Part shown: positions 3 through 32,176 of the stretch, in pieces
Numbering within the stretch: position 1 is the stretch's first letter
Layout of the letters: each line of letters opens with the position of its first letter
Position numbers and translations under genes: made by a program
Notes under the pieces: model-generated
Database searches by the model: none
Told to the model about the DNA's origin: nothing
What the model saw: only the letters and a program-made list of their open reading frames with translations
Source of the DNA: a virus
Lineage: Duplodnaviria; Caudoviricetes
Strand: one strand, 5' to 3'
Length of the DNA: 64,000 bases
Virus record (IMG/VR): IMGVR_UViG_3300025640_001000

Positions 3-911
3 ACAAGTCTTGTTTGGTTTGGAGACGCAACTTCTAAATGCGAACAAATCGATATCTTAAACTTCAGAGATGAAATTACATCAGTTTATTATGTAGAAGA
101 TTCAAATACAAATTTGCTTGCTTCAAAAAAATCATCTCTTGCTACAATTTCAACTAGATACCGATACCTTGACGCAGGTGCTGGTGGTTTAATTTTCGTT
201 TCGGATACCTCATTGGTATTGGATGACGTGGTTAAAAGTTATTTAAACGAAGATGCTGGTAGAATAATTCCAACATACATTGAACGATTTGAAACATCAG
301 GTACCATACCTGGTACATTCGTAATGACATCCGAATTCAAAAACAAAAAACCTGTATATAAAAACACAGATTATCAATGGTATATTTGGTACGATGAATC
401 AGAATCTGTGTGGATTGCGTCTGAAGATGCAGTTTCAAAAGATAAAACATTTTTAAAAGGTGATACTTGTTTGCCAAATTTTCAGAATTATACCAATGAT
501 TCTTTTTCATCTCATCTTATTACTACACAAAATTGGGATTGTCTTGAAGTTGATGAATTAAATGGAGTAGTTGAATCTGCAAATGGAATTTATTGTCAAA
601 CTGCAACATACAATGAACATCCTGCGTATGTAAGTTGCAATGGAGCATGGTACATTTATTTTGATTTAATAACATGGGTATTAACTGATTCACCATATAA
701 TCGTGAAGGTATGTGGTTGATAAATGGAAGTACATCCGTGTATACCAAATTCAATAATGTAGCAGGTGGAAACGGAAGTTCTTCGTTCAACAATCAAACG
801 GCAGTTGTTAAGTCAATGGGTATTCCTGCAGGTGCTTTAATGGTTGAAGATGGTGAAGATATATTGTTCACAGAAAACGATAATACAGCCGTTACAGGTG
901 AAGGTACTTGA
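3..911 (+). CDS. 5'-truncated modular virion-type protein: degenerate WYG module, two small beta-rich repeats and a C-terminal L-x-x-EDG motif
   Basis: The frame is open from base 3 (TSLVWFGDATSKCEQIDILNFRDEITSVYYVED), upstream of the 114 call, and matches the YNLVWYGDC...VFQI N-terminus of 7939. Two repeats of G-x-(F/Y)...N-x-(K/H)P-x-Y...WYI(W/Y)..W; ends GALMVEDGEDILFTE. Confidence 0.7.
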   Translation, partial: TSLVWFGDATSKCEQIDILNFRDEITSVYYVEDSNTNLLASKKSSLATISTRYRYLDAGAGGLIFVSDTSLVLDDVVKSYLNEDAGRIIPTYIERFETSGTIPGTFVMTSEFKNKKPVYKNTDYQWYIWYDESESVWIASEDAVSKDKTFLKGDTCLPNFQNYTNDSFSSHLITTQNWDCLEVDELNGVVESANGIYCQTATYNEHPAYVSCNGAWYIYFDLITWVLTDSPYNREGMWLINGSTSVYTKFNNVAGGNGSSSFNNQTAVVKSMGIPAGALMVEDGEDILFTENDNTAVTGEGT

Positions 912-951
912 TCAGCATTACAATTATTGAGTATATTTTAATATAGCACTG

Positions 952-960
952 ATATTTATA
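952..960 (+). promoter_or_regulatory. putative late-promoter motif ATATTTATA
   Basis: Lies 11 nt upstream of ATG 972; the same motif recurs upstream of about 10 genes in the window. Confidence 0.45.
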
Positions 961-971
961 TATTTAGTGTT

Positions 972-3900
972 ATGAATCTTCCCTCAAAAAATGCTCGTAA
1001 AATGTATATGGCTGCGGCCAGTAAAGGCAAATATCAGTATGTATGTGACTGCTCTTTGTATGAATCGTGGGACGGCTATAAAGACAACCCAGGTGAAATA
1101 AAGTATTCACTTCTTATAGATGATAATCCACTTAATGATGTTTCTCAAGTGGGTGATAGAATACTTGAAACTAGTGTTGAGATATTTGATGATAGTGTTT
1201 TCAACAAAATCGTATTCAATTATTTTGGTCATAGTGAGCAAAAGAAATCATTTATTATAAAATATGTGTGCTTCGTTGATGTAAACGGAAATTGTCTTCC
1301 TGTGGATATCAAGGATATTGTAGGACGAGCATACAGAAACACCAAACGTGACACTTATACATCGTTACCTGTAGGTAATGGAGTTAATTTGTTTTCAACA
1401 GGAGAAGCATCACTTGGAACTCAGTCAACTTTAAATTATGGATGTGAAATTGAAGTAACATTCAAAAATAGATTAAGATACAGAGATGTAAAAAAGATCA
1501 TGTGGCATTATTACACAGATGATCCTGCAGGAACTAAAAAAGTTTCAATTGGTAGCAACTTTAATTTATACAAAGATGGTGATGTTGTTGTGCATGGAGA
1601 TAATGTTTGGTCAGCATATGGAGATATAAATGATCCAGATGACGAACCAGGTACATCAATTCACTGGGAGTTTTTGTGTTCATGTGAACGAGATGAATTT
1701 TATTGTCCTGAATATACACCAACACCCACTCCAACACCAACACCCACTCCATCACCAACTCCATCACCTACACCAACTCCAGAAGAAGTAATATGTTGGT
1801 GTGATGAACATCCACGATGGATTGCTATGGATTATGCTTGGAAATCTGTGGTGTCGCACGAAGGATACATTTATCAAGCAACTGATTATCAAGGAACAGA
1901 GGCTGCTGATGTACCCGGAACTTCAAATCACTGGTTTCAAGTGTGTCGTTGTTTAGAAGAATGTTATCCAACTGAAATATGTGTTAAAATGGAAGAAGCA
2001 ATTGGTTGGAATTTGGGTATTAGTCATACTCCTGATTTATTTCCAACACCAACACCAACACCAACTCCTGCGATTTGTAATCCAGTTTCTCATCAACTTG
2101 GTGGAAGCAAGCAATACTCTCATGCAGGTTCACATGAAAATGCATACGATGGAGATTCACAAACTGCAACGGGTGACTATAAATGTTGGTGGTCAGGTTC
2201 TTCAATCAATTCTACTGCATGGGTAATTTATACATTTGATGAACCATTAACAGGACAAACATTAGAAATTGATATTGATTTGTATATAAGTGGTGGAAAC
2301 GGAAACACGGCAAACTTCTTGGTAGACTACAAATCCACAAAAGAGTCAAATTGGATTCAAATATGGAAAGCAGATGATTATTCTGTGCTAACCAGAAAAC
2401 GCATGACTTGGGATGTTGACTTAACAAACAAAACCGTTTATCAAGTTCGTGTGTGGACTCAAGACACCAAAAACAATGCACCTTCATTCCGAGTATTTGA
2501 TATAGGAGTTAAAAATTGCTTCGTTGAATCGTGTGAACCAAGAGAACTGGATTGTCAGAATTTATCGTTTCATTTACAAAGTAACAGTGAAGATGATAAT
2601 GTGGAATTTACTGACGAAAGTCTTAATAACCTTGAAGTTGATAGAATTGGTAATGCTCATCATTCAAGTGATAAAACTTTATTTGGAAGAACTTCTGTTT
2701 ATTTTCCAGTTGGAACACGAATTGACATACAATCATCTGACGATTTAAAAATTGGTACAGACGAATTTACAATAGATGCGTGGGTTTACATTACAAATAC
2801 CCGAACAGGAACAAATCCACCGAGTTACTCAGACAGAGCAATTGCCGGAACATTCTCTGGTAATGGTGGACGAGGAGCAGGTTCTGCGTGTTTCCTTTTT
2901 CTTGAAAACAAAACAAATAATTTGTGTTTTTGGGATGGTGTAAGTCAAAAAACAGGAAACATGGTGATACAACAAAATGCGTGGACTCATGTTGCAGTAT
3001 CCCGACATTCTGGAGTATTAAGATTGTTTGTTGATGGTCAACAAGCACTCACCGAAAATCATTCGGTAAATTTATCAGGCAACGCAGGATGGTCAATCGG
3101 TGGAGCAAGAACAATCAATCCAACATTAACGAACCGATGGTTTGATGGATATATTCAAGATGTTAGAATCATAAAAGGAACTGGATTATATAGTTGTGAA
3201 TTTGATCGTCCAATTGCATTAAGTTCAATTTGCAGAAATGTTCCAAATCCTGTGATTAAACTACTTGGTGAATCTTTAACAGAAAATAACAATGTATGGA
3301 ACAATTCAGCATCCACTTCGTATCATGCTAACATCAAAGGATCACATCAAAAGATTTTTACGAATTGTGGAGGAGTTCAATTTGCAAATACAGGTGGTTT
3401 CATTGAAATGAGCAATTACGGAGCAAATCCTCAGACATTAACATTTGAAACAACATTTGCAATCGAATCAACAAAAAATGTAACACAAGGTTCAAGTACT
3501 GCTGATCGTCAGTATATTGTATTTCAACAAAATTCAAGAACCACATCGTTTGAAGGATTTTCACTTCAATATTATGAGTCATCTGAAAGTTTGACATTAG
3601 TTGCAACGAATCCTCATACACGTGAGCAACATCTTGTTCGTACACCCGAAGGTTTAATTACTGTTGGATCATTGGTTCATGTGGTGTGTGTACTTGAAAT
3701 TGACAAAATGCACATTTATGTAGACGGCCGCATGGAAGCAACTGGAAGAAAGTGGTCAGGTGGTATTGATTATAGTTCAACTCACAAACTTACCCTTGCA
3801 AGAGCAAATCCAAGAGGAACGGTATACGATGGTTATATGAATGGAACTATATACGAATTTTCATTGTTTGAAACCGCATTAACTGATGTAGAAGCAGCTG

Positions 3901-4850: not shown

Positions 4851-4908
4851 AAACAATAAATAATACTTTTTTTAATATCAACAACTCAATTCCACATTTG
4901 ATTTGTAA

Positions 4909-4917
4909 ATACTTATA
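4909..4917 (+). promoter_or_regulatory. putative late-promoter motif ATACTTATA
   Basis: Variant of the recurring motif in the 4851-4952 intergenic region; identical to the copy at 42927. Confidence 0.4.
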
Positions 4918-4952
4918 TGAAAAAAATGAAATAAATTTAGGTAATAAATAAC

Positions 4953-7937: not shown

Positions 7938-7938
7938 A

Positions 7939-10509
7939 ATGGGAAAGTTAGATAAAGTATATAATTTGGTATGGTACGGAGATTGTGATGATCCAGATTG
8001 TCAGCCCGTAGATTTGTCTTTGTATAAAGACGACCTTGAGTTTGTATTTCAGATTTCTGATGTTAACTCGGGGTGGAAACATTGGTCATCAGCAACAGAT
8101 GCAATCAATCTCGGAGATTTTGCGGATTTGATATGTGGTGTGCCTTATATCATAAAGTTGACATCAGATGATAAAGTAAAACCAAATAAAGTAGTTGAAA
8201 TTCCTGGAGTTACTGTTGGTAGATTTGCAGATGATCCAACTGATGCTACTAGTAAACGAATAAGTGACAATTGTGTACCTGCAAAGTTTTGTACATTTGT
8301 GGTTGATAATGTTTTAACAAGCACATTTGATTTAACCATTTATATGTCTACGATAGATTCATATAGAACCAATAATTATATTCGTGGTTTTGAATTGTTT
8401 TTTGATAATGTTAAACTGAAACCCACAGGTACAATTTCGCATACTTTTCAAGAACGAGTTGCAACCGCAGTTAAAAATGATGACAATGAAGAAGAAGAAC
8501 TTTTTCGTGAACTTATCAAACGAACAAGTTCATTGGTTTCGTTTGATGAAGAAGGTGATACAACTTACAACAAATGGGGTTTTTCAGATTTAAGAAAGTT
8601 TAGTACAGGCATTTCGTTGAGCAACGAATTTCAGTCATCGTATAAATTTACCATTCCGTTTGATTCTATTGACGGTGAATTGAAAGTTAATAGTGCTAAC
8701 ATTTACGATACAACGGTTGGTCGTTACAAATTTGATTATGTATTGTGTGATGGTTACAAACCACCCACAAATCCAACCCCAACTCCAACTCAAACTCCAA
8801 CTCCAACAAGTGAGTGCATAAAACCAGACGATGAATATTGTGAAGAATTGGTATTTCATTTGCAAAGTAAAAATGAAACAGATGGTTCTGATGTGGTGAT
8901 TGATGCAAGTCTTAAAAATCATCCACTTGAATTTCCAAATGGAAGAATCAAGCATTCATCTGCCAGAAGAAAATTTGGGGAAAGCAGTTTTGATTTCACA
9001 GGAAACGAAGTTATCAAACTTCCTCAGTCAGAAGATTGGAGATTTCTTCAAGGACAATTTACGATTGATGCGTGGGTTTATGTAGATTCATTTGATGCTT
9101 CTAGTAACTTTACACGTGACAAAGCAATTTTTGCAAGTTTGGCAACTCAACAAATTATGTTTGGAATTGACAATAAAAGTGGAAAACTGATTATGTGGGA
9201 CGGACTTTTGCAAAAAAGTTCAGACGAAGCAGTTGTTGCACGAAAGTGGACTCATGTTGGTGTAACTCGTGACGGATCAATTCTTAGAATGTATATTGAT
9301 GCCAAGAAAGTATTTGAAGACAGAGAATATTCATCAAATTTTTACGAATCAAATAGTTTCAGTATAGGTGGAGCAATAGACTTTGATTCAGGAGATTCAA
9401 ATTACACAAGATTGTTTAATGGTTACATTAACGATCTTCGTGTTGTTAAAGGTGTCGCATTGTATACATCAGATAGATTTTGTGAATACGAAGACTTCCA
9501 TGAAGATTGTGAACATCCTCCGTCACCAACTCCAACTAAAACTGATGTTCCACCAGAATGTAATCCAGAACATTATACTTGCGAAACGAAAATTGAACCA
9601 AGCAATTTGTTTGATAACTTCACTAATTTCTATGGATTAACAGGAGTAAATTCTTCAGGAACGTATGCCGTAACCAACGAAGGATCAATTAAAAGTAATC
9701 TTGACAACACATTGACAATAGAAACGGTTGAACCTACGAGTGGTGATGCAAACATGGTTGCAGTATTTTCCGATGGAAATTATCAAATGACATCATTCTT
9801 TAAGCATTTTTGTTTGAGCATATTTGATTTGTCTTATTCTTCAACACAAGAAGTAACAAGTCATTTGGCACTTTATCAAACTGATACAATTTACACAATG
9901 GAAATTGCAACCGGTAACTCGTTTAATGATCCAACTATTCAACGAGGACCAGTGGTTGCTGAGTCGTTTGTTCGTAGAGTAGGAATGGGACCAGAGTATC
10001 CAATTTTATCAACAGGAAATCGTTTTAGAGTCGGATTGGCATTTTCAAGAACAGGAGTTCCTGTTGCATCTGAAATCGTTTTACAAAATGGTTTTGATAT
10101 TTGTTTGAGCAGAAATATGCTTTTTGTTCCTGATGACGAAACAACACCAACTCCAACACCTACGGTAACACCAGAAGAACCATTGAATTGTTGTATGGGA
10201 TTTGATTATCAGAATATTGAGGTTACTGCTGAAATGGCAGCTAGCACAAAGGCAGATGGACCTCCTGGAATTTCAATAAATGGATTTGAAGAAGGGGGTA
10301 TTGTGTGTATGAATGAACTTACCGAAACGGTGCAGACATTATCTTGTCCAGTTTCAACGGCCGACTTCACACTGTCCGGTATGATAACACTAGGTCAGAC
10401 ATCACCTGACAATAAACTAAGATATACATCTGTCGCAGGTGATTGTTATGAAGCAGATTTGGAACATAATCCAAGTGCTGGTTTTGTTTTATTAAATCCA
10501 ATAACATAA
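7939..10509 (+). CDS. modular protein: WYG module, cohesin-like domain, PT, LamG, beta domain, PT, CC module
   Basis: LVWYGDC..LICGVPYIIKL; YIRGFELFFDNVKL; FTIDAWVY..WTHVGVTRDG..FNGYINDLRVVKG; NCCMGFD..GFEEGGIVC. Confidence 0.8.
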   Translation: MGKLDKVYNLVWYGDCDDPDCQPVDLSLYKDDLEFVFQISDVNSGWKHWSSATDAINLGDFADLICGVPYIIKLTSDDKVKPNKVVEIPGVTVGRFADDPTDATSKRISDNCVPAKFCTFVVDNVLTSTFDLTIYMSTIDSYRTNNYIRGFELFFDNVKLKPTGTISHTFQERVATAVKNDDNEEEELFRELIKRTSSLVSFDEEGDTTYNKWGFSDLRKFSTGISLSNEFQSSYKFTIPFDSIDGELKVNSANIYDTTVGRYKFDYVLCDGYKPPTNPTPTPTQTPTPTSECIKPDDEYCEELVFHLQSKNETDGSDVVIDASLKNHPLEFPNGRIKHSSARRKFGESSFDFTGNEVIKLPQSEDWRFLQGQFTIDAWVYVDSFDASSNFTRDKAIFASLATQQIMFGIDNKSGKLIMWDGLLQKSSDEAVVARKWTHVGVTRDGSILRMYIDAKKVFEDREYSSNFYESNSFSIGGAIDFDSGDSNYTRLFNGYINDLRVVKGVALYTSDRFCEYEDFHEDCEHPPSPTPTKTDVPPECNPEHYTCETKIEPSNLFDNFTNFYGLTGVNSSGTYAVTNEGSIKSNLDNTLTIETVEPTSGDANMVAVFSDGNYQMTSFFKHFCLSIFDLSYSSTQEVTSHLALYQTDTIYTMEIATGNSFNDPTIQRGPVVAESFVRRVGMGPEYPILSTGNRFRVGLAFSRTGVPVASEIVLQNGFDICLSRNMLFVPDDETTPTPTPTVTPEEPLNCCMGFDYQNIEVTAEMAASTKADGPPGISINGFEEGGIVCMNELTETVQTLSCPVSTADFTLSGMITLGQTSPDNKLRYTSVAGDCYEADLEHNPSAGFVLLNPIT

Positions 10510-10520
10510 AATGAAACAAA

Positions 10521-10886
10521 ATGGCAAATTTAGAACAAACAGAAGATTCTTTAGCATATTACCAAGGATGGTATGGAACATTATCTGAAAATGGTATAGA
10601 CGGATGTGAACCTTTAAAACTAGTGCTTGGTGACGGTCCTTATACAAAGGCTTATACTGAAATTTTGAATGTTATTGAAATTCGAGATGACAACAAAGCA
10701 CCAATAAGTTACAACGGAATTCTTCCAGATGTGTTGCTTGGAAATGCAACAATAAAAGAATTAAAATGTGGGCATTCTTATTTAATCGTATTAAAAAAAG
10801 GAACAGGTAGTGTAGATATTCCCGAATTCACGTTTGCAACCGCAGGAACCTCAAGTTATGAGTACAAACTTAGATCAACTATCTGA
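10521..10886 (+). CDS. stand-alone WYG module protein (121 aa)
   Basis: [33 protein letters not shown]; a single domain, near-duplicate of the next gene's N-terminus. Confidence 0.75.
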
Positions 10887-11171
10887 TTCTCTTGCATATT
10901 ATCAGGGGTGGTATGGAACTTGTCCTGAGAGTGGTTCTGATGTATGTGAACCTTTAAAACTAGTGCTTGGTGACGGTCCTTATACAAAGGCTTATACTGA
11001 AATTTTGAATGTTATTGAAATTCGAGATGACAACAAAGCACCAATAAGTTACAACGGAATTCTTCCAGATGTGTTGCTTGGAAATGCAACAATAAAAGAA
11101 TTAAAATGTGGGCATTCTTATTTAATCGTATTAAAAAAAGGAACAGGTAGTGTAGATATTCCCGAATTCAC
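10604..11171 (+). repeat. 228-bp perfect direct repeat (10604-10831 = 10944-11171)
   Basis: Base-by-base identity from ATGTGAACCTTTAAAAC to CCCGAATTCAC at an offset of 340 bp; flanks are diverged. Confidence 0.95.
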
Positions 11172-12147
11172 TTTTGCGAACGCAGGAACAAATGACGATT
11201 TGGAAAAAAATCGTTTAGCATTAAATTGCGAAGTAGATACAGGATGTCCTACTTGTGAAGATTATACAGGAAGTTCATCTACATTCAATATTGATTTAAA
11301 GAATTTACCAACAACTGCACAAGAAAGTGTACACGTCGTAGTTTATGATGCTTCTGTAGAAGGAACTTTATGTCATGCAGAAGTTGATTCCGGACTTCCA
11401 AAAACTTATTATATGTTCGTTGATTCTGCAACCGAACCATTTGCTTCTATTACAATCGCAGGTGAACTTAGAGGCACAAAGAAAATAAAATACACAATAA
11501 ATGACGATTGCTACGGAGCAGAACCCGAACAAGAAACTTACGCAGAAGGTGATATAAATGTTTATAGATTTAAATCAATAGGAACCGTGGTAGAACCAGT
11601 TCATACACCCACCGAGACACCTTCTCCTACCAATGTACCAACTCCAACAGAAACACCTTCTCCGAGTGAGACACCAAGCAATGTACCGACTCCAACGGAA
11701 ACACCTTCTCCGAGTGCTACACCATCGCATACACCTTCACATACACCCTCTCACACACCAAGTCCTACATTCACACCAAGTCCATCGGAAACTCCAAGTG
11801 CGACAATAACACCTGATATTATTGAACCTTGTTGCGATGCAGGAATGATAACTGGTATCGTTGGAAGTTCGGTGACAGAAATTTCAATGGAAATAACTGC
11901 TCAACCATTTGATTGTGATGGAACGATATGCTTAAACAGCAACATCACAAGTTCTATGCCAACGAGTGTACGAATAAATGTAAACGGAATTTACATGGGA
12001 GCATTGGGAGTACAAGGAACTTTAAACAACGGAACATCAGTAAAATTAACAATATCTTCCACGACAAATTCATCATTCAATAATTTTGTGGGAATATGCT
12101 TAACAGGAACAATTTCAGATAATATATGTAATTTAACGGAATCATAA
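10858..12147 (+). CDS. modular protein: WYG module, CC-type module, PT/PS linker, C-terminal CC module
   Basis: ATG 10858 ([20 protein letters not shown]) aligns with the start of 10521 and is preferred over TTG 10834. Also [13 protein letters not shown] and [21 protein letters not shown]. Confidence 0.8.
11598..11813 (+). repeat. Pro/Thr/Ser linker with [12 protein letters not shown] and TPSH sub-repeats
   Basis: Seen in the translation. Confidence 0.85.
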
Positions 12148-12150
12148 GTC

Positions 12151-15100
12151 ATGGATACAATTCAACAATTAACAAACAACAAAAAAATAGCAATCGTATG
12201 GTATGGTGAATGCGGAGAGGACTGCGTTGATTATGATCTTGACGATTCTGCTAATGCCACAGAAACAAACAAAATAGATCACATCTACGAAATTGCAGAT
12301 GATCAAACCAAATCTATTTTTTATTCAAGTTATGTAGGTCATGTTCATAGCAACTCGGATCAAACATTAAATACACTTCAATGTGGTCATGCTTATTATC
12401 TTGTATTAAAAAAAGGTAGTGATACATTGGAAATTCCAAATATGACAATTGCTCATGCTGGAATTTCCGCAGGAAAGATTTCTCAATCTTGTGCAATTGC
12501 ACCTGAAATTGAATTTGTTGATTTAATTGCAAATATTCCGGCAGATTTGAAACTCAAAATTACAGTTAATATTGATGATCTTGTTGCTCCGTGTGCAGCC
12601 AATACATGGAAATACAAAATAATTAAAGGTGGTGAAAACGAAACTGATCCATACACCGAAATAATAGTTGATGATGTTGAAGGTGATAATACAACACCAG
12701 TTGGAGTTAATGTGGAAGAAATTTCAATTGCAATGCCTGAAGGTGGAATTTACTATAAAGTTGTTATTTGGGGTGAGAATGCAAACGGAGATAAAATCAC
12801 AGAAGAACCAGATCAAGAAAAAGTGGCATTGATGCCATGGCCGTCTGGATTATTTAGCATCGTTGGTACTGTAGGTGTAGATTATTTGGAATACGAAGGA
12901 CCATCTACAAGCAGTACAGAACTTACATTCAGTGGCCAAGATTCTTTGATTGATACTTTACATTTAATTAAACCAAGTTTGAAAGAAATACCTGGTGCAG
13001 ATACAAATGTTGTAAACTGGCAATACAAAATAAATGGTACAGGTGCTTGGGTTGATTACAATGATATTTCAAGTGACGGTCAAGTTGAAGTTCAGTATAC
13101 AGATAAAATTTACTGGAGATTAAAAGAAGATTTGTCAGCAGGAACTGAAGTTGATTTGTTCAAAAATTATCCTGCGACAATGGTTGTAAAATATGTTGAG
13201 AAAAACGGAACGACTTTATTCGTGGAAAAAGATTTAATTGGTGACGTACTCAATCGTAGAATTACAATTCGTGCTTTTCAAGATGACAGAAATTTTAATG
13301 CTTCATTGGATATTACTCGTTTGAATGTTAAACGATGGGATTACAAACTTGAAAAGTTAAATGATACTCAAACAGCTGTAGAAACAACGGTCAGAGATTT
13401 TTCAAGTATTATCGCAACTGGAGCAGAACGAGGAACTGAAACTGAAGATTCTACCATCAATATTCAAACTGCTATTGAAACTCATGGTGCAGGACATTAT
13501 CGTGTAACAGTTCAAGGTTATCATAAAACCGACAATGACATAGTTGTCACGGATGTTCCTGCAGTTGACGAAGCATTTTTTAATTATCCTGTCCCGACCT
13601 TTGCTATTTCTAGTACAGGTGCAGATGCAACTACAGTTGACGTATTTTATCGTGAGTACGAAGGTCCAAGTTCATCAGAACCTCTTGTGTTAACTGCACA
13701 AACAAATGTTGCTTCTGTTGAATTTACTTCTTTGACAAATGAAACTAGTTGGTTTTACGGAGTGGACACAACTGCAAATGCATCTCCACTTCCATTTAAT
13801 CCCACAAATATTGTTGTGACAGACAAAAACAAAATTAATTTTATATTAAAAGAAAATCAAAAAGCAACCGGAAGTGCTGATAAATCTTACGATTCAGATT
13901 TAAGATTTACAATTAAAGGAAAAGATACATTGCATCCAGCTGATCCGGGTACTACCTTGAATCCAGAATTAACAATCAAAGGTCATGTCAAAGAAAGAAT
14001 AACAAGCATAGATACATTGGTAATACAAAGTAATGATCCAAATGCAAATACAATTAATCTTCGTGCAACTTTTGATTTGACTGAGACAAATCGGTATACT
14101 TTTACGTGGAATAAAGATTCTGCATCGTTGTCCACAACAGATGCAGATACTGGAGCAACTTACAATTCCAACAATCTTACAAAAGATTTGTCGGTGGATT
14201 TAAATACTGATAACAGAGGTGAATACAAGTTTGAGTTGGTTGGTAAACATTCTGATGCTAGTAATAATGTGGTTCACGAAAGTGGGTGGATTGCTGGACA
14301 AGTTGCAGAATCAGATGAGAAATCAATTACCGTTTCTTATCCTGCTCCAACATTTGCAGTAACTTCCACAATTTCAGACGGATACAAAGAACGAGAAGAA
14401 TCAAGTAGAGCACCTTCTCCTACAGTGAAACTAATAACATTTCATTGGATGGATCATTCCGAGGATATTACTTTCACAGGACCATCAGATTCAATTTGGG
14501 AATACAAAAAAAGTGGTGATACGAATTACACTTCTGTTTCTGCTACTCCTGTTGTAGTTACCAAATCAGAAGAAATTGAAATTCGTGTAAAAGAAGGAAA
14601 ATTGGTAAGTGACAACGGAGATGAAATCTTAAATTGGTCAGCAACATCGTTAGATGGAACAAATCAAACTGCGACTACAACGATGACTGCGACAATGACG
14701 GAAGGTGAGGAATTACCTAAAGTTGCATGGATTGGGTTTTCCGGAGGAAATGCCAGTGGAGTGAAACAATACTCAGATTGGTATGAGTTGGAAACTGTGG
14801 AGACGGCAAAGGTTGTTCTTGACAATGAGTGGCCACCGGCCGCAACTGGTGGTCAAGGCGGTGCTATTGGTGTTGGTATAGATATAGATTTTACACCGTC
14901 TAATCCATTTGCTGGACAGACTCCTACACATAACATATTCAACAATACACCATTTACGTCAGATACACTCGCACCTTATGGATCAACTCCAAGTACAAGT
15001 CACCCATTTCATGGAAAAGCAATTAAAAGTGATGATAATGGGACTACACTTTATATTATGGTTGAAATGGATCACACTCAATTTAGGATTGCTTCCAGTG

Positions 15101-15573
15101 ATGCGTCCAGTTATGCATCCTCATTGAGTTCCTTCTGCACAGAAAATTCTGTGACTGAGTTGCCGTATATTGTAATAACTACAAATCCAACAAGACCAGA
15201 CAATGATGTGGTTTCAAAACCTTGGATTACACAGGCATTCGACTCGGATTCGTTTAGGATGAAGTGTGATGGAACTTGGAACTATGACGATTCAGACGCA
15301 GAACAATACAACTTAAAAATAGATGGTAAAAATGGATCAGGTGCAAATACAACATTTAGATATTCACCTTCTAGTCCATCTGGTCATGCTTCGGGTCCAT
15401 GGAATGGAATAGGAATGCAGTTCTTTTGTGCGGCTGGATTAACACCCCCCACATCGGGTGATTCCGCGGGTAGTATACCAATGTCTAATATAAAACTAGA
15501 GTTAGGAACAAATAATTCTGGTGTATATGCAAAACTTTCTGATGGAAACCCAACAGGTTCAATTTGTTCTTAA
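12151..15573 (+). CDS. modular fibre-like protein: WYG module, Ig-like stalk shared with 21683, C-terminal tip shared with 27629
   Basis: AIVWYGEC..LQCGHAYYLVLKKG; repeated Y(L/R)EYEGP and WQY motifs; [11 protein letters not shown]; tip WIGF..WYELE..DHTQF..RMKCDGTWN. Confidence 0.75.
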   Translation: MDTIQQLTNNKKIAIVWYGECGEDCVDYDLDDSANATETNKIDHIYEIADDQTKSIFYSSYVGHVHSNSDQTLNTLQCGHAYYLVLKKGSDTLEIPNMTIAHAGISAGKISQSCAIAPEIEFVDLIANIPADLKLKITVNIDDLVAPCAANTWKYKIIKGGENETDPYTEIIVDDVEGDNTTPVGVNVEEISIAMPEGGIYYKVVIWGENANGDKITEEPDQEKVALMPWPSGLFSIVGTVGVDYLEYEGPSTSSTELTFSGQDSLIDTLHLIKPSLKEIPGADTNVVNWQYKINGTGAWVDYNDISSDGQVEVQYTDKIYWRLKEDLSAGTEVDLFKNYPATMVVKYVEKNGTTLFVEKDLIGDVLNRRITIRAFQDDRNFNASLDITRLNVKRWDYKLEKLNDTQTAVETTVRDFSSIIATGAERGTETEDSTINIQTAIETHGAGHYRVTVQGYHKTDNDIVVTDVPAVDEAFFNYPVPTFAISSTGADATTVDVFYREYEGPSSSEPLVLTAQTNVASVEFTSLTNETSWFYGVDTTANASPLPFNPTNIVVTDKNKINFILKENQKATGSADKSYDSDLRFTIKGKDTLHPADPGTTLNPELTIKGHVKERITSIDTLVIQSNDPNANTINLRATFDLTETNRYTFTWNKDSASLSTTDADTGATYNSNNLTKDLSVDLNTDNRGEYKFELVGKHSDASNNVVHESGWIAGQVAESDEKSITVSYPAPTFAVTSTISDGYKEREESSRAPSPTVKLITFHWMDHSEDITFTGPSDSIWEYKKSGDTNYTSVSATPVVVTKSEEIEIRVKEGKLVSDNGDEILNWSATSLDGTNQTATTTMTATMTEGEELPKVAWIGFSGGNASGVKQYSDWYELETVETAKVVLDNEWPPAATGGQGGAIGVGIDIDFTPSNPFAGQTPTHNIFNNTPFTSDTLAPYGSTPSTSHPFHGKAIKSDDNGTTLYIMVEMDHTQFRIASSDASSYASSLSSFCTENSVTELPYIVITTNPTRPDNDVVSKPWITQAFDSDSFRMKCDGTWNYDDSDAEQYNLKIDGKNGSGANTTFRYSPSSPSGHASGPWNGIGMQFFCAAGLTPPTSGDSAGSIPMSNIKLELGTNNSGVYAKLSDGNPTGSICS

Positions 15574-15589
15574 AAAGTGAGTATGTATC

Positions 15590-21643: not shown

Positions 21644-21657
21644 CTTTAAATAACCTA

Positions 21658-21666
21658 ATATTTATA
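21658..21666 (+). promoter_or_regulatory. putative late-promoter motif ATATTTATA
   Basis: Sits in the 39-nt gap before ATG 21683. Confidence 0.45.
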
Positions 21667-21682
21667 TACTAACGAATTTCAA

Positions 21683-24600
21683 ATGGCAGACTTAACACAA
21701 ATCAATGGAAATCAACGAATCGTCATGGGATGGTACGGTTCATGCGATGATGCAGGATGTGAAGATTTCCCACTCAAAACACAAGAAGTGTCGGATGCAA
21801 TTGATAGTGTTTATGAAATTCATACAGATTCAACCCGAGCAGTTGCATTTCATTCTTACATTTATGAAACGATGCCCAATCAAACTCAATCGTTGGAATC
21901 GTTAAAATGTGGTCATTCTTATTACATTGCATTGAAATCTGGAAACGAAACTTTAACAATTGAAGAATTTGTTCTCGCAGATGAAAGCACAACGCAAGAA
22001 CGATATGTAACAACTGATGACCAATGTGGTGATGGAGGTGATGGTGGAGGTGGAGGTGGAGAATGTCCTGAGTGTCCTGATTGCCCATCAGTTGATCCAA
22101 TAATTTTACCTACAACTGGAACAATTGCGTGTTGGAGTAATTTAAATTTTGCGTTAAACGGATCAGATGCAAATTCATTTCCTAAATACAAAGCAACTAC
22201 TGAATTGGGTCATGTTATTGAAATTTATCATGATTCTGATAATAAAAGATGGATAATCAGAGGTCATGCGGTTACACACGGAGCTCCCACATCAACTCCA
22301 ATTGGATTAGCAGCCTTTTCAAAACCTTCACCCTGTGCATTTTTTCCGTGGCAAGTAGATTGGGATGTAGATAAAAATTCCGAAGACGCATCTGCTTGGT
22401 TACAATCAATAAAAACAGAGTATCAATATTCAAATATATGGTGGGCAATGTCTACTGATTTTCCGCAGGGAGGTGATGTAACTACAATCACAAACTGCAC
22501 ACCACTTACGGCAGAATGTCCTCCTTGTGTTAAAGATGCAACTATTGCTTTTAGTGCGAATCCTACCATAAGAAATCAAGATTCAGTTCCGTTAGGTTTT
22601 ACATTTTCAGTTGATACATCAAGTTTAGCAAGTGAGTGTTCTTCAAACGAATGGAAATATTCTTTGTCTATAAAAGATGGAGAAACTTTAAAAACATCAC
22701 AACAAATTTCAACTGATACAACTTTGATAAATGATTTGGTACCGGGTGGTGGAACTTACATAATAAAAATATGGGGTGTAACTGAGTCCGGAACATTAAT
22801 TACACCTGAACCTCATGTAGAAGCAGAATTGATAATGCCTTGGCCAGCAGCCAATTATGAAGTACAAGATGATATTGATATTACTTACTTGGAATTTGAA
22901 GGACCCAACGATGATTCAGTTACTTTGTCGGATCCAGAAGGATGGGTTGCATCTGCGACAATTAAAAAATCAAGTACAATAACAAACGCAGAAAAATGGA
23001 AATATAGTTTAGACAATTCAACTTGGAATGAATTGACTGCATTAACAGAGACTACTATTTCAACAACTGCAACTTTGTATTTCCGTTTAAAAGTCGGACA
23101 TCTCGGTGGAAATGACGATACAGATTTAACTACCTTGAATAAATCTTACAATTCAGAAGTTACAATTGCTTACACAGAAAATAACGGAACACCACGTGAA
23201 TTATCGTTGCCATTAAAAGGTAAAGTTTTAAATAGAATCATCGGAATAACTTCTTGGGTGAACAACAATAATACAGATTTTAAAGCAACTTTAACAATCA
23301 GCAAAAATCAGTTGACTCGTTGGCAATATCAGTTGGAAAAACTAAACGATGACGAAGCATCATATGGTACTCCTAAAATTTTGACTGCATATGGAGCAAT
23401 TCAATCTGATACTTCAGAGGTAATTGATCTTCAAACTTACATAGAATCATCAACTGCTGATATGGGTCCTGGATACTACAAAATAAGTGTAAGGGGTGTT
23501 CATAATACAGATAATAATATTGTAGTAACTCCGGAAATATCAGTACACGACTTTTTTAATTATCCTGATGTAATATTTGATATAAACGATATTTCATGGC
23601 CAAACTCTAATAGTGAACCAGTGCAGCTGCAGGTTGAATATCGTGAATATGAAGGTCCTACTGAAATGGCACAATTCAAAATCACAAATGACAAGTATTT
23701 TGATCATTGGACATTTGCGTATAATACCGAGTCTTCATCCTTCCCTCCTTCCGATATAACACCCAACACAGATTACAATTATCAACTTGATGACGAATCT
23801 ATTATATCGTCATTGCCCACAACGCACACAAATATAGCAAAAAAAGCACTAGGTATCCAATTGATTTCAAAAAACGCATCAGATACACCAACCGTTTACG
23901 AGCTCGGTGACATCCAATCCCGGGAAGATCCTCTCAGAAGAGACTACTATGCATGGGTCCACATCCACATATACGGTAAAAACGCAATTTCAACACTTGC
24001 AGAACCTGCGAATCCAGTGTACTACAGTGCCGAGGTGACAACTTGGGTTTTAGAACGTTATATAACATCTTTCTCTCCAGACCAACGAGAATCTCCTTAC
24101 CACAACAAAATTACGTTAGATCTACAGTGTAACTTCAATGAAATTAATCGTGCTCAGATAATATGGACAAAAAATACAACTGAGTTAACCGACACAGGAA
24201 TTACACAACTACCAAATTATAATCATTTTATAACACCTGACTACACAATTGATTTGAATGACGTTCCAAGTAATTATCTTACAGATAACAACGATTTCAA
24301 TATTTCAGTTATTGGTCATTCAACAACAGATACCGATGTCATTCACGAAGCCGGATGGATCGCAGGACAAGTTGCACCTGCACTGGAACACACTTTTACG
24401 GTATCATGGCCAACTACAATATTTACGGTGTCGGAAACAATTTCCGATACTTATATTTGGCAAGGTGTTACTGCAACACCAGCAACAAACGGAACATTAG
24501 CATCAATCACAAAAGGTTGGGTTAAAACAATAACATTAAATAATCCCACAGGAACCGATGTTGGCAATTGGCAATATTCAATAAACAACGGAGAAAATTG

Positions 24601-25540
24601 GAGTAATTTGACAGGTGTGAACGTGGAAGTTCCTGATCATACATCAGAAGGACCAAAACTTAAATTTAGATTAAAGGCAAATCTAGAAGTGAATACATAC
24701 AATGATGTAACAGTTGATTTGGTTGCACATGATGTTCAAAGTGCCAATACGACAAAAACAATCAATTTAAATGGTTCAGTAACAAAACCAACTCCAATTT
24801 TCACAATATCACCTACATCTATTTCAGGTGAATATCGTGAAACAGAAGGACCAAGTGCAGAAAAAACAATTACGATTACAACGAAGTTCTTAAGTTCATT
24901 GAAGTGGAAATCATCCGGAGAAATTTCTTGGGAATATTTTGATACAACTTGGAAAGATTTACCAACGAATTATGTCACGATACTGAATAAACCACTTCAA
25001 GCAGGTCAAACACATTCTACACAAGAATCGTTGACGATTAAAGTTCGTTTAAAAGCAGGACTTGAAGTGCCTAATGCAGATGATATGGATACGCAAATAG
25101 AATCTGCAAATTTCAATAATGTAATCACCTTTGAAGCAATTTCATCACACGATGTTGATGTTACTGCCGGAAAGCAAGTTGCATTAAACGGAACGGTAAC
25201 CGAGTATCCAAATGGTTGTGCTGACTATGATTTGTCGTTCGATACAACAGGTAATAAAGTTGTGTATGAAGGTGATGGGGTAACTATTATTGGTTTTGAG
25301 AACGGAGGCCACATTTGCGTTGATAATTTTGGAGGTGAATTTGGAACTAAGAGTATATCACTTGAAGTGCGTGATTCCTCAAATAATGTGATCACAACAG
25401 GAAGTGTCACTACAAATTGGAGTTGGGGTTCTGGAAATAATGTTGTGTATAAAGCACCGGATCAACAAGCATACCAAGTATTGGGATTTTCATTTAGTCA
25501 GGATGGAAATATAATTTTAACACCAATGGATTTAGGCTAA
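21683..25540 (+). CDS. modular fibre-like protein: WYG module, PWxxDW module, Ig-like stalk paralogous to 12151, C-terminal CC-type module
   Basis: [21 protein letters not shown]; LIMPWP, YLEFEGP, VLNR, FFNYP and [11 protein letters not shown] are all shared with 12151; [15 protein letters not shown]. Confidence 0.75.
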
Positions 25541-25541
25541 G

Positions 25542-27587
25542 ATGGCAACATTAAAACAAAAAATGTTTGTACCAAAAACCTATATAGGTTGGTATGGGGT
25601 ATGTCCTGAGAACGGAGAAAATGCGTGTGAACCATTTAAATTAATAAGTGATACAAACGAACATACAATTTTACCTGGATCACCTACAACAGGTGATATC
25701 GGCACAAGTCAATTAATTGATTTAATAATTTCATATGAAAATGTGGCCGGAAGTGCATACAACGGAAAGGTAAACAAAGGAATTTCGCAAGGAAATCAAG
25801 GAATTAAAGAACTTATATGTGGAAATGCTTATATAATAGTTTTAAAACCTGGAACTGATGCTGAAAATCTTCTTGAATTTACAATTCCGGAATTCGTTAT
25901 TGGTAATATTGAAAGTGACGAAAAAGAATCGGAAGAATATATTCTTACCACAGGATGTGGAACTGGAGGAGTTGACGAAAGAACTCCAACTCCATCACCA
26001 TCAATTACGACAAGTCCAACAGAAACTCCGAGTCCGTCTCCAAGTCCGTCCGCAACCGAAACTCCGAGTCCTTCACCAAGTCCTTCACCGAGTATCACAC
26101 CAAGTCCGACAATTACGACAAGTCCGTCACCAAGTCCAACAATTACTTCAGACTTACTTGAAGAATGTTGTGAAGAAAATATGTTGACACATGGTTTGAG
26201 TGCATCTCAGATAACATCATTCGGTGAACCAACAATAACCGCAACTGGTGTAACACAAAACGCAACAATTTGCGTTGGAACACCAAGTGGTGAACTTCCG
26301 TATACTTTAAAATTAATAATTGATAATCAGATCGTTGCAGTTTTAACAACAACAGGTACATTTGATAAAACCACAATTTATTACAAAACATCTGAAGGTG
26401 AGTGTTTGATTGGAAGTATCGTAGATGATGAATGTGTATTGTCAACCGGATCATCGTTAAATTTTAGTATAGAAGGTTCAGATATTCATGGATTTGAAAT
26501 TAAAGCAATATTAACTAATGATTCATATTTACAAACCGAAGGTACTGATTGGGTTGCAACTACAATGGGAAATGAGTTGGTGATTTCTGTGGAAGATACA
26601 AAATATTTATCAGATAGCATTGCATCTTTACAATTCTTTGAATTAAGCACGATACCTAATGTTTCATACGATAAAAGTAGTTGTACAATTATAGACGAAG
26701 AATTAACTTTTATTTATCCAATTATTTCGGAAAAGTTAAATGGTGGCACTTTATTAAAGTGTATTGCTTCTAATTTATCATCGTTATATTCACAATTTAC
26801 TGATGACAACACATTTAATACTTTTGTTGATACAGAGAACTTTAGTGTTGATAACATAATTAAAAAATCGGAAAATGATGAATTTGCGAAAAACGATCAA
26901 GTCAATGACAAGGTAAGTAAAAAATTGACTGTTCTGTTGGAATCGGTGAAGTTGCAAAAAAATTATTCATCAAGTAAATCCACAAAAATAATTGACACAA
27001 TTACGGACATAAAAAAATCCCAAAAGGCATTTGATGTATCTCAACTCAAACTTATCGAGAACGATAATTTTGCAAATAGTGTAAATTACTTGCTTACGGA
27101 AATTAGCAAAGATAACACATTAGAAGGTGGTGCTTTCATGAGTTCACTCCGGGAACATTTAAATTTACCATTTCAAGCAATTAACAATATGTCAAATAAG
27201 GCAAAAGAAAAATTGCTTGAAAAACTGAAAAATCATTCACACAAAAAAGATGTTTGTGATTTACAACCACCTTCTTGTTGTGAAGATGATATGAGCATGA
27301 ACACTGTTATCAACGACACATCGGTTCAATTAATAGAATTTGAAAATAATGCCAATGTAACGATTTCAGGAATTTCAGATTCAGCAAAAAATTCGGAAAT
27401 CTGTTTTAGTGAACCGGATACAACAGAAAAAAGTCTTCCGTTCTCGGTAATAATCAAGAAAGACAATGCAATTTTAATGGTGCTGACAAGTGTCGGAGAA
27501 TTAACAAGAAATAAAATCTATTACAGAACAAACAATATATGTTATAGTGGCATTATTGATGGAAATAATGAATGTAATTTGCAATAA
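25542..27587 (+). CDS. modular protein: WYG module, PS/PT linker, CC module, helical region, CC module
   Basis: [22 protein letters not shown]; [19 protein letters not shown]; [20 protein letters not shown]. Confidence 0.75.
25983..26146 (+). repeat. Pro/Ser/Thr linker
   Basis: [55 protein letters not shown]. Confidence 0.85.
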
Positions 27588-27591
27588 GTAT

Positions 27592-27600
27592 ATATTTATG
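27592..27600 (+). promoter_or_regulatory. putative late-promoter motif ATATTTATG, followed by SD AGGAG
   Basis: Intergenic before ATG 27629; AGGAG at about 27616-27620. Confidence 0.45.
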
Positions 27601-27628
27601 AATATTGAAGTAATCAGGAGAATTAAAA

Positions 27629-30600
27629 ATGGCAACAATTAATAAGCAATATAGTTTTATATGGTACGGAAAATGTATTGATACAGGTACAACAAATGGA
27701 GGATGCACTTCATTCACTTTAGATAACAGTGGTGAGTCGGCAAAAATAGACACCGTTTGGCAAGTAGATGAGCTCGGTAATGCAAATGCATGGGTAAATG
27801 GTGCTGAAGGAACACAATCATTTTCAACACTTGAATGTGGTCATGCTTATTATATTAAATTGAAAGGTCCAGCATACGATTGTGATATTCCTCATGCAGA
27901 ATTGAGTGGATATAGTCAAGAGACGGCAACTGCATTCAGAATAACAGAAGATTGTAACGCAGGTGGTGGTGGAGGAGGAACGGTTCTTCAAGCAAGTATT
28001 GCTTTAGGTGCGTGTCAATCCGCAATTACTCTTTCCGCAACACAATTAGATTCAGATGATTCTTATACATCGTGTCAATTACAAAAAACTGGTGCAACAT
28101 TCGTTGCAATTTCCGACACTTTAACAGATAACATTCGTTACAATTTAACAGACGGTGGACTTTTAAGTTACAAAATTGATAATACCGATGATGTGGGTGC
28201 TAGTTTAACTACCGGTGCTATAACTATAACTGCAAATGCAGATGAAGGATATGGATTTGGTAGTCAATCAAATACATTAACTGTTACGATCAACGGTTCA
28301 GTTACTGCTCTTCCGAAACCAGTGATAAATATCACAACCACTGTTTCACCAACTAATACAGTGACATTTATACCAGATTTTAATGATGCAACAAATTGGG
28401 GTGGAACAAATTGGAAATATCGTCTCAAAAATGCAATTGGTCAATCAATTACAAATTACACTACTGTTACTAATTTTCAATCAAATGCAATTGATATTAC
28501 AAATGAGTTTGATCACGCAGGAATTTATACAATAGACGCAGAAATAGTCACGACTGGAGGTGATTCTATTGCTGGATCAACTAAAGTAGAAAATCAATCT
28601 ATTAATATTCCTCGTTTGGCGGCAAATATTTCGGTAGGTAATATTGCTCATGGTAGTATTGATCGTGATACTTTACCAGATACAAAAACTGCTTCGGTAA
28701 CTGCTACCAATATATCAGGAGATTGGAGTATTAAAACTGATGCAAGTAATGCAGCTATTACTGCTACAAAAAATAATAACAATTTACAATCCGTTTTAAA
28801 TACACAAGAACTTGGTGTAATAGATAGTGATAATAAAGTAACGATTTCAGCACAAGGAACAAAGTGGAATCAGGTAGAAACTGCAGGCCTTGGTGGAAGT
28901 GACCTTGTATTAGGTCCTGCAAGCAATGAAGTTACTGCTGAATGTACAATTACTGCTACTGTAACTGATGGTGTAGTATTCACTTCATCAAAATCTTCTG
29001 TAAGTGACAATACACGTGATACGGACGATGCAATTCCATCTCCAACTAAAATCACTATCACCCACGATGATGTAGATAGTTGGGTTGCTTCGTTAAATGG
29101 TACTTCAACAAATTGGAAGTTTAGTACAACGCAAACTGGAACATATAGCACTGATCCAGCAACTTTGTCAAAAAGTGGTTTAGATCATGCACCAGGTACA
29201 TTTGATTTTTGGGTAAAGTATGACACCAATAGTGTTGCGGATGAAACACTCACTTTAACATTATCAGAATCAGCAACTGATGGTCATTCAGACGTAGCAG
29301 ATATTACAATTACTTTAACTGGTGAAGTTACACAAGCAATTGGAACTGCAATTTTCTCAGGATGTAGTTCAATTGATGCAATTTCAATTGAAGTTGGAGA
29401 TACGTCGAACTCCACGAATAATAATAAGACTTGTGATTTAACAACGACTGATTGTAGTGTGGACGATGTGACTGCAACAACATTGGGTATATTTACTTAT
29501 ACGATCACAAATAACAAGGTTAATTACTGGATTACAGATGCATCTAGTGTACAAAGTACGGAAACTGAAACTCTTGACGTCACCGCAAAGGCTGATACGA
29601 ATTTCCTCATTGATGGACAACCTACGAAAATAATTTCAATAACGTTGAGTGGTACGGTAAATGCAAAAACTGCAACTGCTTCAATAACAACCAATCCATC
29701 GGGAGTTGGATCTGTAACTTTTGGTGAAGATTACTCGTCCCAAACCGATACATTTAAAATAACAACAAATGCAAATGCAAATATAACGATCCCTGCCACT
29801 ACTGCTCTACCAATCACCCAAGGTGATTTTGAAATTACCGATATTGCAGAGAGTGGTGGTGTTTATACTTACACATATAAAATAAAAGCAGGTGTTTCCA
29901 CGGGAGCAAAATCTGCAACATATGGGGTGACAGTAAACGCAGATACCAATAGTCAATTTGATGGACTGGCAATCAACGCATCTAAAACAATTAACGTAAC
30001 TTTAAGTGGTACGGTTGAAGCTGCAACGATACCTGAGAATTCAAGCATCGCAAACGGAGCTTGTCCAAAAGATATTTCTCAGGATGCATCAACAACTGCC
30101 ACTCAAACAAGTTGTCAACTTACTCTTGTCAACGCAGTGTGTGTACCAATAACCAATGCTGTTCATGGTGGACTTAAATATTCATTGACTGCACAAGGAT
30201 TGCTTACATACGAAGCAAATGATCCTGAGTCAGTAGGAGAACATTCGCATGAAGTAACAATAACTGCCAATTCAACTGATTCCTCTGCATCATTATTTGC
30301 TGGACAAGCACAGACTGTCACACACAAAGTAACGATGAAAATAACAGTAAATGAAGTGGTTGTTGCCGATGATAAATTGTGGATAGGATTTGCAAAAGAC
30401 GCATCAACATTTTATTCATGGTATGAATTGGAAGCAGTTGAAGAATTAACTACTCAAATTCAATTTGATAATATGGCTACGTTTACTCAGTTCTCTGCTA
30501 TGGCTCCTCCTGCTGAAACACCGGCCGTTGGGGAAAACTTTAATTCAGCAACAATGAATATAATGGGTTCTATATATCCAATAAATACTGCAAATCTTCC

Positions 30601-31183: not shown

Positions 31184-32176
31184 ATGAGTTATTGCGAATG
31201 CCATGATGATTATGTAAATTCAGGAACATTTGATTTATCTAATGTTCGGGTTTATCGTGCGTTTCAAGTTTTTCATGAAGGTGGAAAGCAACCTATGCCT
31301 GGCCAAGACTCATCGACACCTATCATGGACAGATTCACGACATTCTATGCGGATGGCCAAGCAAGTGGTGCTTATCCTGCAATTGGTGCAGCTGTAGTAA
31401 CACTACCAGCAGACCCACCGGAAGAAGGAATTTGTGCAAATTATGACGAAGATGAAGCAGGAGTCTTATCATTGTCCGATTATCGTATTTTTCGTGCATT
31501 TCAAGTGTTCCATGAAGGTGGACGACAACCAATGCCAGGTCAAGACTCATCAACATCCATTATGGATAGATTTCTTGCATTTTACGCGGACGGCCAGGCA
31601 AGTGGTGCATATCCTGCAATCGGAGCAGACGTTAAGCACTTACCTATTCTTGAAGCAGATACTCAAGTAATTACCGATGAAGGTCTTGTTGACAAATGTG
31701 ATACGGGTGCAGTTTGTACTTGCAGTGCAGTTGTAGAAGATACTGTATTAAAAGTTGATTTTGATGCAAGTGAGTTGACAGGTGGAAACGGAGACATAAA
31801 AGGTGTGGAAATCGTATTTGATAATGTTGTATTCGGAGAAAAAACAGGATTATCAGGAGGTAACGCAATCATAAACGACAATTTTAAAGATACTAACGAT
31901 GCAGCTACTTTAGACTTTTATTATGATTATAGCATCCGTTCAACCTCAGTAAACGATATAGAAACAGAACCAAACAAAACAAAATCGGTAATTGGTTTCA
32001 TTGATACAACACAAAACGGAACCGGAGCAACCAAATCTGAATTAAGTTCTTTTCAGTTTTCAGTTCAATCTTCGAGTTTCACACAAACAGGAGACAATCC
32101 TATTATTGCTGATGTAAGAGTTTATGATTCTTCTGCGGAAGTCGTGCAGTATGATATAACAAGGTGTGGAGAATAA
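31184..32176 (+). CDS. small adaptor-like protein: duplicated dockerin-like module plus one cohesin-like domain
   Basis: CHDDYVNSGTFDLSNVRVYRAFQVF / CANYDEDEAGVLSLSDYRIFRAFQVF, with about 50 near-identical residues per repeat. The tail VKHLPILEADTQVITDEGLVDKC is shared with 15590. Cohesin-like GDIKGVEIVFDNVVF..VRVYDS. Confidence 0.7.
   Translation: MSYCECHDDYVNSGTFDLSNVRVYRAFQVFHEGGKQPMPGQDSSTPIMDRFTTFYADGQASGAYPAIGAAVVTLPADPPEEGICANYDEDEAGVLSLSDYRIFRAFQVFHEGGRQPMPGQDSSTSIMDRFLAFYADGQASGAYPAIGADVKHLPILEADTQVITDEGLVDKCDTGAVCTCSAVVEDTVLKVDFDASELTGGNGDIKGVEIVFDNVVFGEKTGLSGGNAIINDNFKDTNDAATLDFYYDYSIRSTSVNDIETEPNKTKSVIGFIDTTQNGTGATKSELSSFQFSVQSSSFTQTGDNPIIADVRVYDSSAEVVQYDITRCGE

Follow-up and report, generated by a model that had tools for sequence, protein, structure and literature searches.

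The window analysed here is a 64,000-nt marine, giant-phage-like stretch of DNA, the first 42.9 kb of which are filled by a one-strand run of very large open reading frames (ORFs). Seven of these ORFs, all on the + strand and starting at 7939, 10521, 10858, 12151, 21683, 25542 and 27629, open with copies of one module, a head of about 110 residues found at the start of adhesin-like genes. The first 105–130 residues of the seven can be aligned, with an invariant M1, W-Y-G, two cysteines, L, L-x-C-G, Y, L and I, and the paralogous heads are mutually 24–34% identical. In a non-circular test, a hidden Markov model (HMM) built from 39 relatives outside the window was run against the 566 six-frame window ORFs of at least 40 aa. 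The model recovers exactly these seven ORFs, with E values between 3.3e-24 and 6.4e-36, and no other at E ≤ 1. Alignment and HMM together thus bear out the seven full copies that an initial annotation of this DNA had placed at these starts.

The first full copy (7939..8280, E 3.3e-24) belongs to gene 7939..10509 (856 aa), which carries a Laminin_G_3 domain as cargo and ends in a second cysteine-rich module, C-mod, at 10165–10506. Next come a 121-aa ORF that holds the module alone (10521..10886, E 3e-33) and is without the first and fourth cysteines, and the 429-aa gene 10858..12147, whose module (10858..11220, E 2.3e-31) shares a core of about 230 bp with that of 10521. The module of the 1140-aa gene 12151..15573 (12151..12507, E 8.1e-30) is the copy used for structure modelling (predicted local distance difference test, pLDDT, 81.9). 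In the 1285-aa gene 21683..25540, the module (21683..22030, E 6.4e-36) is followed by a Gly-rich and CPxC-rich linker; that of the 681-aa gene 25542..27587 (25542..25961, E 3.2e-26) has a 17-residue insertion and runs into a Pro/Thr/Ser linker, and that of the 1179-aa gene 27629..31168 (27629..27964, E 2.7e-26) into a Gly-rich one. A Gly-rich or Pro/Thr/Ser-rich linker stands directly behind the fourth cysteine in three of the seven copies.

A further copy lies at 3..300 (+ strand) in the 5′-truncated gene 3..911, where WFG replaces WYG, the first cysteine is gone and the CG motif is lost, with LDAG in its place. On its own this copy is weak: it scores E 0.62 with an HMM of the seven copies, is not found at E ≤ 1 with the non-window HMM, and reaches 18 bits, over its first half only, with an HMM of the 46-row module alignment. 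Its homologues match the module profile (L027:3124-4068 at 8e-8 and L007:4795-5673 at 1e-6), and the alignment of its subfamily matches the module alignment with an hhalign probability of 98.6% (E 1.2e-15, 98 columns). For these two reasons we regard gene 3..911 as a divergent, degenerate member of the family, and the degenerate copy that had been proposed for the truncated first gene is upheld.

A profile search of 1.84 billion representative proteins returned 333 at E ≤ 1e-3, of which 162 also pass a threshold of 1e-10 and 10 one of 1e-30. We re-scanned 150 listed representatives with the HMM of the 46-row alignment, and the positional counts cover these. The module is present in 149 of the 150; its start falls among residues 1–15 in 142 of these, at residues 16–40 in three, and later in four (P0083, P0124, P0172 and P0189), of which P0124 is a 5′-truncated call. 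All 40 longer proteins from a word-indexed search have it at residues 1–12. One metagenome scan gave 24 loci with 86 ORFs that carry the head, without exception on one strand and at least two per locus in 23 of the 24; here the module falls within the first 15 residues of 80 ORFs and at residues 16–30 of the other six, where start calls are crude. The N-terminal M-A-x-L-x-Q is itself conserved. The proposal that the module is N-terminal wherever the start is visible therefore agrees with all three counts (40/40, 142/149 and, in the metagenome loci, 86/86), and homologues are tied to the N-terminus rather than scattered at random internal positions. P0187, the one representative that lacks the module, is a protein of FN3 repeats and was retrieved at E 5e-12 through seven weak stretches covering profile positions 29–91. 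It faintly suggests some likeness between FN3 strands and the second half of the head, for which fold searches gave no confirmation: neither FN3 nor Ig chains were prominent in the Foldseek and VIA-align results for the head (best Z 4.0).

No named family accounts for the module. Pfam places no family over it, either on full proteins or on 46 isolated modules; at E ≤ 1, 17 families appear with one member each (best E 0.008). NCBIfam gives no module match at E ≤ 1 and PHROGs none, and a sequence profile search of the PDB with the module reaches a best E of 1.7. Matches to a known catalytic or lectin family are thus absent from Pfam and NCBIfam. The loose resemblance to 'GWNL...LxPGxGYWI' domains of surface proteins suggested in the initial annotation found no support in any search, the Pfam hits being the single-member ones just described. 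In the ESM Atlas, the head matches unnamed clusters only (score 0.94), the nearest being 64% viral among members with records. Literature searches by general terms, not by motif, found no paper describing the module, and the available portion of the Mar_Mega_1 paper (PMC9723777) makes no mention of such a domain. By sequence comparison, the module is a real and undescribed domain family.

AlphaFold2, given the 46-row alignment, predicts a compact domain built from seven strands with a single short helix (mean pLDDT 81.9, predicted template modelling score, pTM, 0.73), whose very first residues are modelled as a strand at a pLDDT of about 95. Searches with this model returned nothing above noise in Foldseek against the PDB (best E 0.31) or BFVD (best E 0.14), and in VIA-align against 48,161 chains the best Z of 4.0 (XepA and YomS) is below the noise level; failed searches with a predicted model do not by themselves prove a new fold. 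Four cysteines are conserved over 171 module instances, at positions 22 (155 of 171), 27 (149), 75 (152) and 112 (133, with 30 gaps). The full pattern CCCC occurs 120 times, and losses come preferentially in pairs: both middle cysteines are missing in seven instances (CxxC) and the first and last in six (xCC- or xCCx), with fewer single losses (CxCC 3, xCCC 2, CCCx 4). Since cysteines are lost in this paired manner, the pattern indicates a pairing of Cys1 with Cys4 and of Cys2 with Cys3, most simply as two disulfides. A Zn(Cys)4 site was judged less likely, the cysteines being lost two at a time. No signal peptide is evident, as none of 141 N-termini holds a 12-residue hydrophobic segment with a Kyte–Doolittle (KD) value of at least 2.0 (maximum KD 1.55), and the missing export signal fits assembly in the cytoplasm.

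What follows the head varies. The cargo was scanned with Pfam in 72 representatives of 300–1060 aa, taken shortest first from the 83 of at least 300 aa among the 150. No family is found in 55 of the 72; the named cargo comprises DUF6174 (8), Laminin_G_3 (4), FG-GAP (2) and single cases of Calx-beta, Big_2, ALK_LTK_GRD plus TSP1, and a serine hydrolase, with fn3 in the outlier P0187. Within the window, Laminin_G_3 in gene 7939 is the only Pfam family detected in the module genes. That the downstream cargo differs, as first proposed, is therefore confirmed by the Laminin_G_3 of 7939 and by the varied or unnamed families of the representatives.

The strongest functional clue is the mosaicism of orthologues. 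The head of 25542 is 96, 89, 79 and 77% identical in P0012, P0013, P0021 and P0023, the remainder being at most 53% identical or rearranged. Between 27629 and P0037, identity is 60% in the head and 34% beyond it, and between 12151 and P0014–16 it falls from about 70% in the head to 43–45% and then to 25–29%. Published accounts of phage receptor-binding proteins (RBPs) describe the same division, in which a conserved N-terminus fastens the protein to the tail and the distal part is exchangeable (PMC8262889, PMC6872550).

A baseplate context comes from the sole IMG/VR relative, G001, a 27.9-kb contig (CheckV 13% complete) that also carries a dUTPase and a clamp loader. Its genes run from gp25 (PF04965, 1.5e-14) and a gp6-like wedge protein (phrog_219, 2.8e-39) through six ORFs of 170–1552 aa, the last of which ends in C-mod, to two head genes at the contig end. 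Tail-type neighbours of module genes in L024, L025 and L029, described below, hint at a similar setting. This context, the mosaicism, the same-strand arrays, the position at residue 1, the lack of a signal peptide and the presence of other conserved heads in the cluster lead us to favour the module as the virion-attachment head of interchangeable adhesin-like fibres, a reading to which we give an even chance of being right. The head would be the plug by which a large family of paralogous adhesins or fibres, monomer-like and built as beads on a string, is attached; their owners would be uncultured marine jumbo or mega-phages with T4-type baseplate genes. Starting from Met1, a compact, beta-rich domain of about 110 residues with two cysteine pairs would be joined by a flexible linker to variable binding domains and would dock each protein to the tail, the baseplate or another virion site. 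Many different distal binding modules could in this way be displayed on one particle, with stand-alone heads serving as caps and tandem heads as bivalent plugs.

Several observations weigh against attachment. No docking partner of the head was found, and the 24–34% identity among paralogues speaks against a single shared socket, except where the few invariant residues do the binding. Several features are those usually seen in secreted proteins, namely paired cysteines, Pro/Thr linkers and cargo of the LamG, FG-GAP or Calx-beta type, and disulfides are unexpected in proteins assembled in the bacterial cytoplasm. The head is predicted with confidence to fold as a monomer with flexible linkers, whereas the anchors of known tail fibres are intertwined trimers. 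No cultured phage in a 50,697-record collection carries the module (megablast of 7000–28000; tblastn of the 12151 head and of P0032), and four IMG/VR pattern scans yield one contig only, from the seven-copy query, the three other queries (including P0032) giving none. Finally, the 64-kb window holds no capsid, tail or terminase gene, so that its assignment to a virus rests on relatives and gene organisation. The common anchoring tag of the initial annotation is partly supported: it keeps its N-terminal position, varied cargo and stand-alone form, and its docking "onto one structure" is doubtful for paralogous heads as dissimilar as these.

The module might instead be a ligand-binding, lectin-like tip, anchored by another part of the protein such as a C-terminal C-mod, much as T4 Hoc is fastened by its C-terminus; we consider this unlikely. 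Its invariant positions hold aromatic residues or glycine (W, Y, G, Y), as is common in carbohydrate-binding sites, and tandem pairs of the module occur in 19 of the 150 representatives (two of them, P0074 and P0098, short fragments), as with tandem carbohydrate-binding modules. About 25 glycosyl- and sulfotransferase genes are syntenic with the array, and C-mod is C-terminal in most array proteins, including head-less ones. Yet a binding domain would have no need of a fixed place at residue 1 or of a conserved M-A-x-L-x-Q start, it is in the head that orthologues agree most rather than least, and no lectin or carbohydrate-binding family or fold matches it.

C-mod as the anchor of such a tip is also at odds with its distribution. 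This module of about 100 residues (consensus CC..F[DE]N[ST]...FE.GG..C...Y.S...Y.G.L) is mostly C-terminal, as in gene 7939, but is also internal and repeated, unlike an anchor: it lies within gene 4953 at 5664–5993 and twice within gene 32189, at 33764–34093 and 37598–38020. Being found internally and in repeats, unlike the head with its tie to the N-terminus, C-mod behaves like an ordinary binding domain. It occurs on head-less proteins, and the smallest complete proteins of the family (229–246 aa) consist of a head and a C-mod only. Its AlphaFold2 model reaches a pLDDT of 81.8, with no Pfam family and no fold match (VIA-align best Z 3.2, Foldseek best E 0.27), and the two modules are unrelated (hhalign probability 0.3%).

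A second alternative is a targeting or pro-domain, which would direct its cargo to the capsid or an inner body and be removed by the prohead protease, as targeting domains are in phiKZ-like and T4 phages, or would act as a non-classical export tag. The strictly N-terminal position on otherwise unrelated cargo, the missing signal peptide and a flexible linker behind the head that could house a cleavage site are all compatible with such a function. However, at about 110 folded, cysteine-paired residues the head is far larger than known capsid-targeting peptides, no conserved cleavage motif is seen behind Cys4 by inspection, and LamG, FG-GAP, Calx-beta and Big_2 domains suit an exposed surface rather than the capsid interior. 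Stand-alone heads are moreover conserved, and a tag without cargo makes little sense, which leaves this reading decidedly unlikely.

The module could also be an oligomerisation or folding nucleus, such as a trimerisation head or intramolecular chaperone, rather than a docking site. Phage fibres are usually trimers with associating N-termini, and the conserved core could be an interface. The confident monomeric model, the Gly or Pro/Thr linkers that uncouple the head from its cargo directly behind it, and the existence of tandem and stand-alone forms make this quite improbable.

Very improbable, finally, is a non-viral origin, with the module heading cell-surface proteins of an uncultured small-genome marine microbe: the window has no viral hallmark gene, its domains and glycosylation genes resemble a cell-surface island and the contigs are large (up to 492–577 kb), but signal peptides are missing from the N-termini, genes for a T4-type baseplate, a clamp loader and a dUTPase are present on the IMG/VR relative, neighbours match tail-fibre and hub PHROGs, the genes of the whole 64 kb lie close together on a single strand, and two pattern scans of 185,579 prokaryote species genomes, of limited sensitivity, found no relative among 38 and 18 pattern matches. 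Each scan used two short peptide patterns, so that the case for absence from cellular genomes is weak. The neighbours concerned are a gp5-like stretch (phrog_1922, 3e-20) in L024 and L025 and a collagen-like tail fibre (phrog_6320, 4.9e-60) in L029; L019 has an HNH endonuclease beside its module gene.

The virion-attachment head would have parallels in known phages. Branched, multi-RBP systems with N-terminal anchors or 'conserved peptides' are described for the Klebsiella phages PhiK64-1 and RaK2, the Menlow group and Ackermannviridae such as CBA120 (PMC6872550, PMC11414711, PMC8262889). As in the window, one jumbo phage reuses a standard N-terminal element in many RBPs, with variable, exchangeable distal parts and clustered genes, and the truncated, docking-only RBPs described there, possible docking placeholders, are much like the 10521 ORF. 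The systems differ in that no sequence or fold similarity to the head was found, and a folded, cysteine-paired domain of about 110 residues stands here where those systems have a peptide of 7–200 residues or a T7 gp17-type anchor. Adhesin-like domains (LamG, FG-GAP, DUF6174) take the place of depolymerases as cargo, and copies are more numerous, seven to eight in the window alone. A Pfam scan found no T4gp10-like socket domain in the window.

Two other kinds of attachment invite comparison. The dockerin–cohesin pairs of cellulosomes (PF00404) likewise combine a small conserved module, Pro/Thr linkers and diverse cargo and imply a plug and socket, and dockerin-like modules occur on neighbouring genes. 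Unlike dockerins, the head is beta-rich, lacks a duplicated Ca-binding loop-helix, is N-terminal where dockerins are usually C-terminal, and has no known cohesin-like socket; PF00404 matches none of the 46 modules. Among capsid-decoration proteins, the capsid-binding domain is N-terminal in T5 pb10 and C-terminal in T4 Hoc. These monomeric proteins also join a small attachment domain to exposed Ig-like or adhesin domains through a flexible connection, but there is one per phage rather than an array of paralogues, and the head has no fold match to any solved chain (best VIA-align Z 4.0). The tests run thus place the module in no named family of anchors, dockerins or lectins. It is an undescribed domain family that would serve a known kind of role, with unusually large arrays and non-enzymatic cargo.

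If the head is an attachment plug, it would mark a whole class of adhesins displayed on the virions of jumbo and mega-phages that are abundant in the sea and uncultured, and WYGxC...LxCGxxYxIxLK at residue 1 would be a handle for finding host-recognition genes. The multi-RBP logic of a standard N-terminus and an exchangeable tip would then extend to a new fold, far larger arrays and non-enzymatic cargo. The concrete structural question would be which virion protein is the socket, and it would have to be explained how a phage put together in the cytoplasm comes to have cysteine-paired domains. A bolder version, which we hold to be a long shot, is a cellulosome-like plug-and-socket display. Here a dozen or more adhesins would carry the same disulfide-locked plug, fitting repeated sockets on the virion or each other's C-mod, with other types of head on neighbouring proteins, stand-alone heads as caps and the transferase block decorating the whole, giving a programmable, glycosylated multi-adhesin coat.

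The stand-alone ORF at 10521 and its neighbour at 10858 have a distinct history. At the DNA level, their core of about 230 bp is 100% identical and the flanks have diverged, which indicates a recent event, either gene conversion or a partial duplication in tandem. An assembly artefact was ruled out, since the unique junction is spanned identically by contigs of two other samples (X13 record 10, 10657–10970; X10 record 2, 10808–10973), and the pair is therefore real. The same pair, a 126-aa ORF followed by an overlapping module gene, occurs in L022, and module-only proteins with a similar short tail are found among the representatives (P0073, P0084, P0115 and P0164). The claim that the module exists alone in 10521 thus holds: the 121-aa ORF is real, and its stand-alone form is conserved in these four proteins and L022. 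The last 29 nt of the stand-alone ORF overlap the following head gene, which lies in the +1 frame (region 10816–10886). A frameshifted fusion product of 10521 and 10858 may exist, and is conceivable because single ORFs with two tandem heads occur elsewhere, in the 19 representatives noted above.

Other large proteins of the cluster start with other conserved heads, so that a conserved N-terminal head with variable cargo looks like its general rule. Genes 15590 (2017 aa) and 31184 (330 aa) share a different, duplicated head of about 85 aa, at 15590–16100 and 31184–31700, with the motif C.CHDDY...Y.AFQ...F..Y.....Q followed by D.QVITD.GLVDK. The first 172 residues of 31184 are 70–85% identical in L017, L024 and L025, far above the neighbouring fibres, which makes 31184 a candidate adaptor; it has no sequence match in the PDB and returned nothing usable from the ESM Atlas. 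Dockerin-like heads occur on 32189 and 41224 (the latter PF00404, 8.7e-8). A region of gene 972–4850 (residues ~212–336) is shared with small head-less array proteins that end in C-mod (L007:5773-7014, L008:302-1543, L021:137-1384, L011:3628-4602, L009:6782-7726 and L027:4172-5065), and may be another head type.

Database records place proteins of the window on contigs as long as 492,783 bp. The stretch 7939–15573 is near-identical in many marine metagenome runs; rows holding its words come from 16 studies, and 16 rows hold at least half of them, nine of which may be the source sample. Matches in two metatranscriptome runs of one study (parts of 7939–14608, 90–95% identity) were rejected as evidence of transcription, DNA being possible in such libraries. 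Read depth has a spike at 8704–8958, in the Pro/Thr-rich linker of gene 7939, reaching 127–579 against about 5–12 elsewhere in all four runs, with many loose ends. A copy-number signal was rejected here, as this low-complexity sequence is common to many other contigs.

Directly behind the fibre array, at 42956–63851, lie about 25 small genes, nearly all of them glycosyltransferases (GT8, GT25, GT64, Fringe/Galactosyl_T, PLOD-GT and Nucleotid_trans types) and sulfotransferases, together with an epimerase and DUF1796. The order of head array, 31184 homologue, 41224 homologue and homologues of 42956 and 43799 (60% and 72% identical) is kept in L010 and L011, which ties the array to the transferase block in at least one other lineage. 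Their association suggests that the fibres are glycosylated or sulfated. Within the block, at 49497–51614, lies a 705-aa protein with an HATPase_c_3 (GHKL ATPase) domain.

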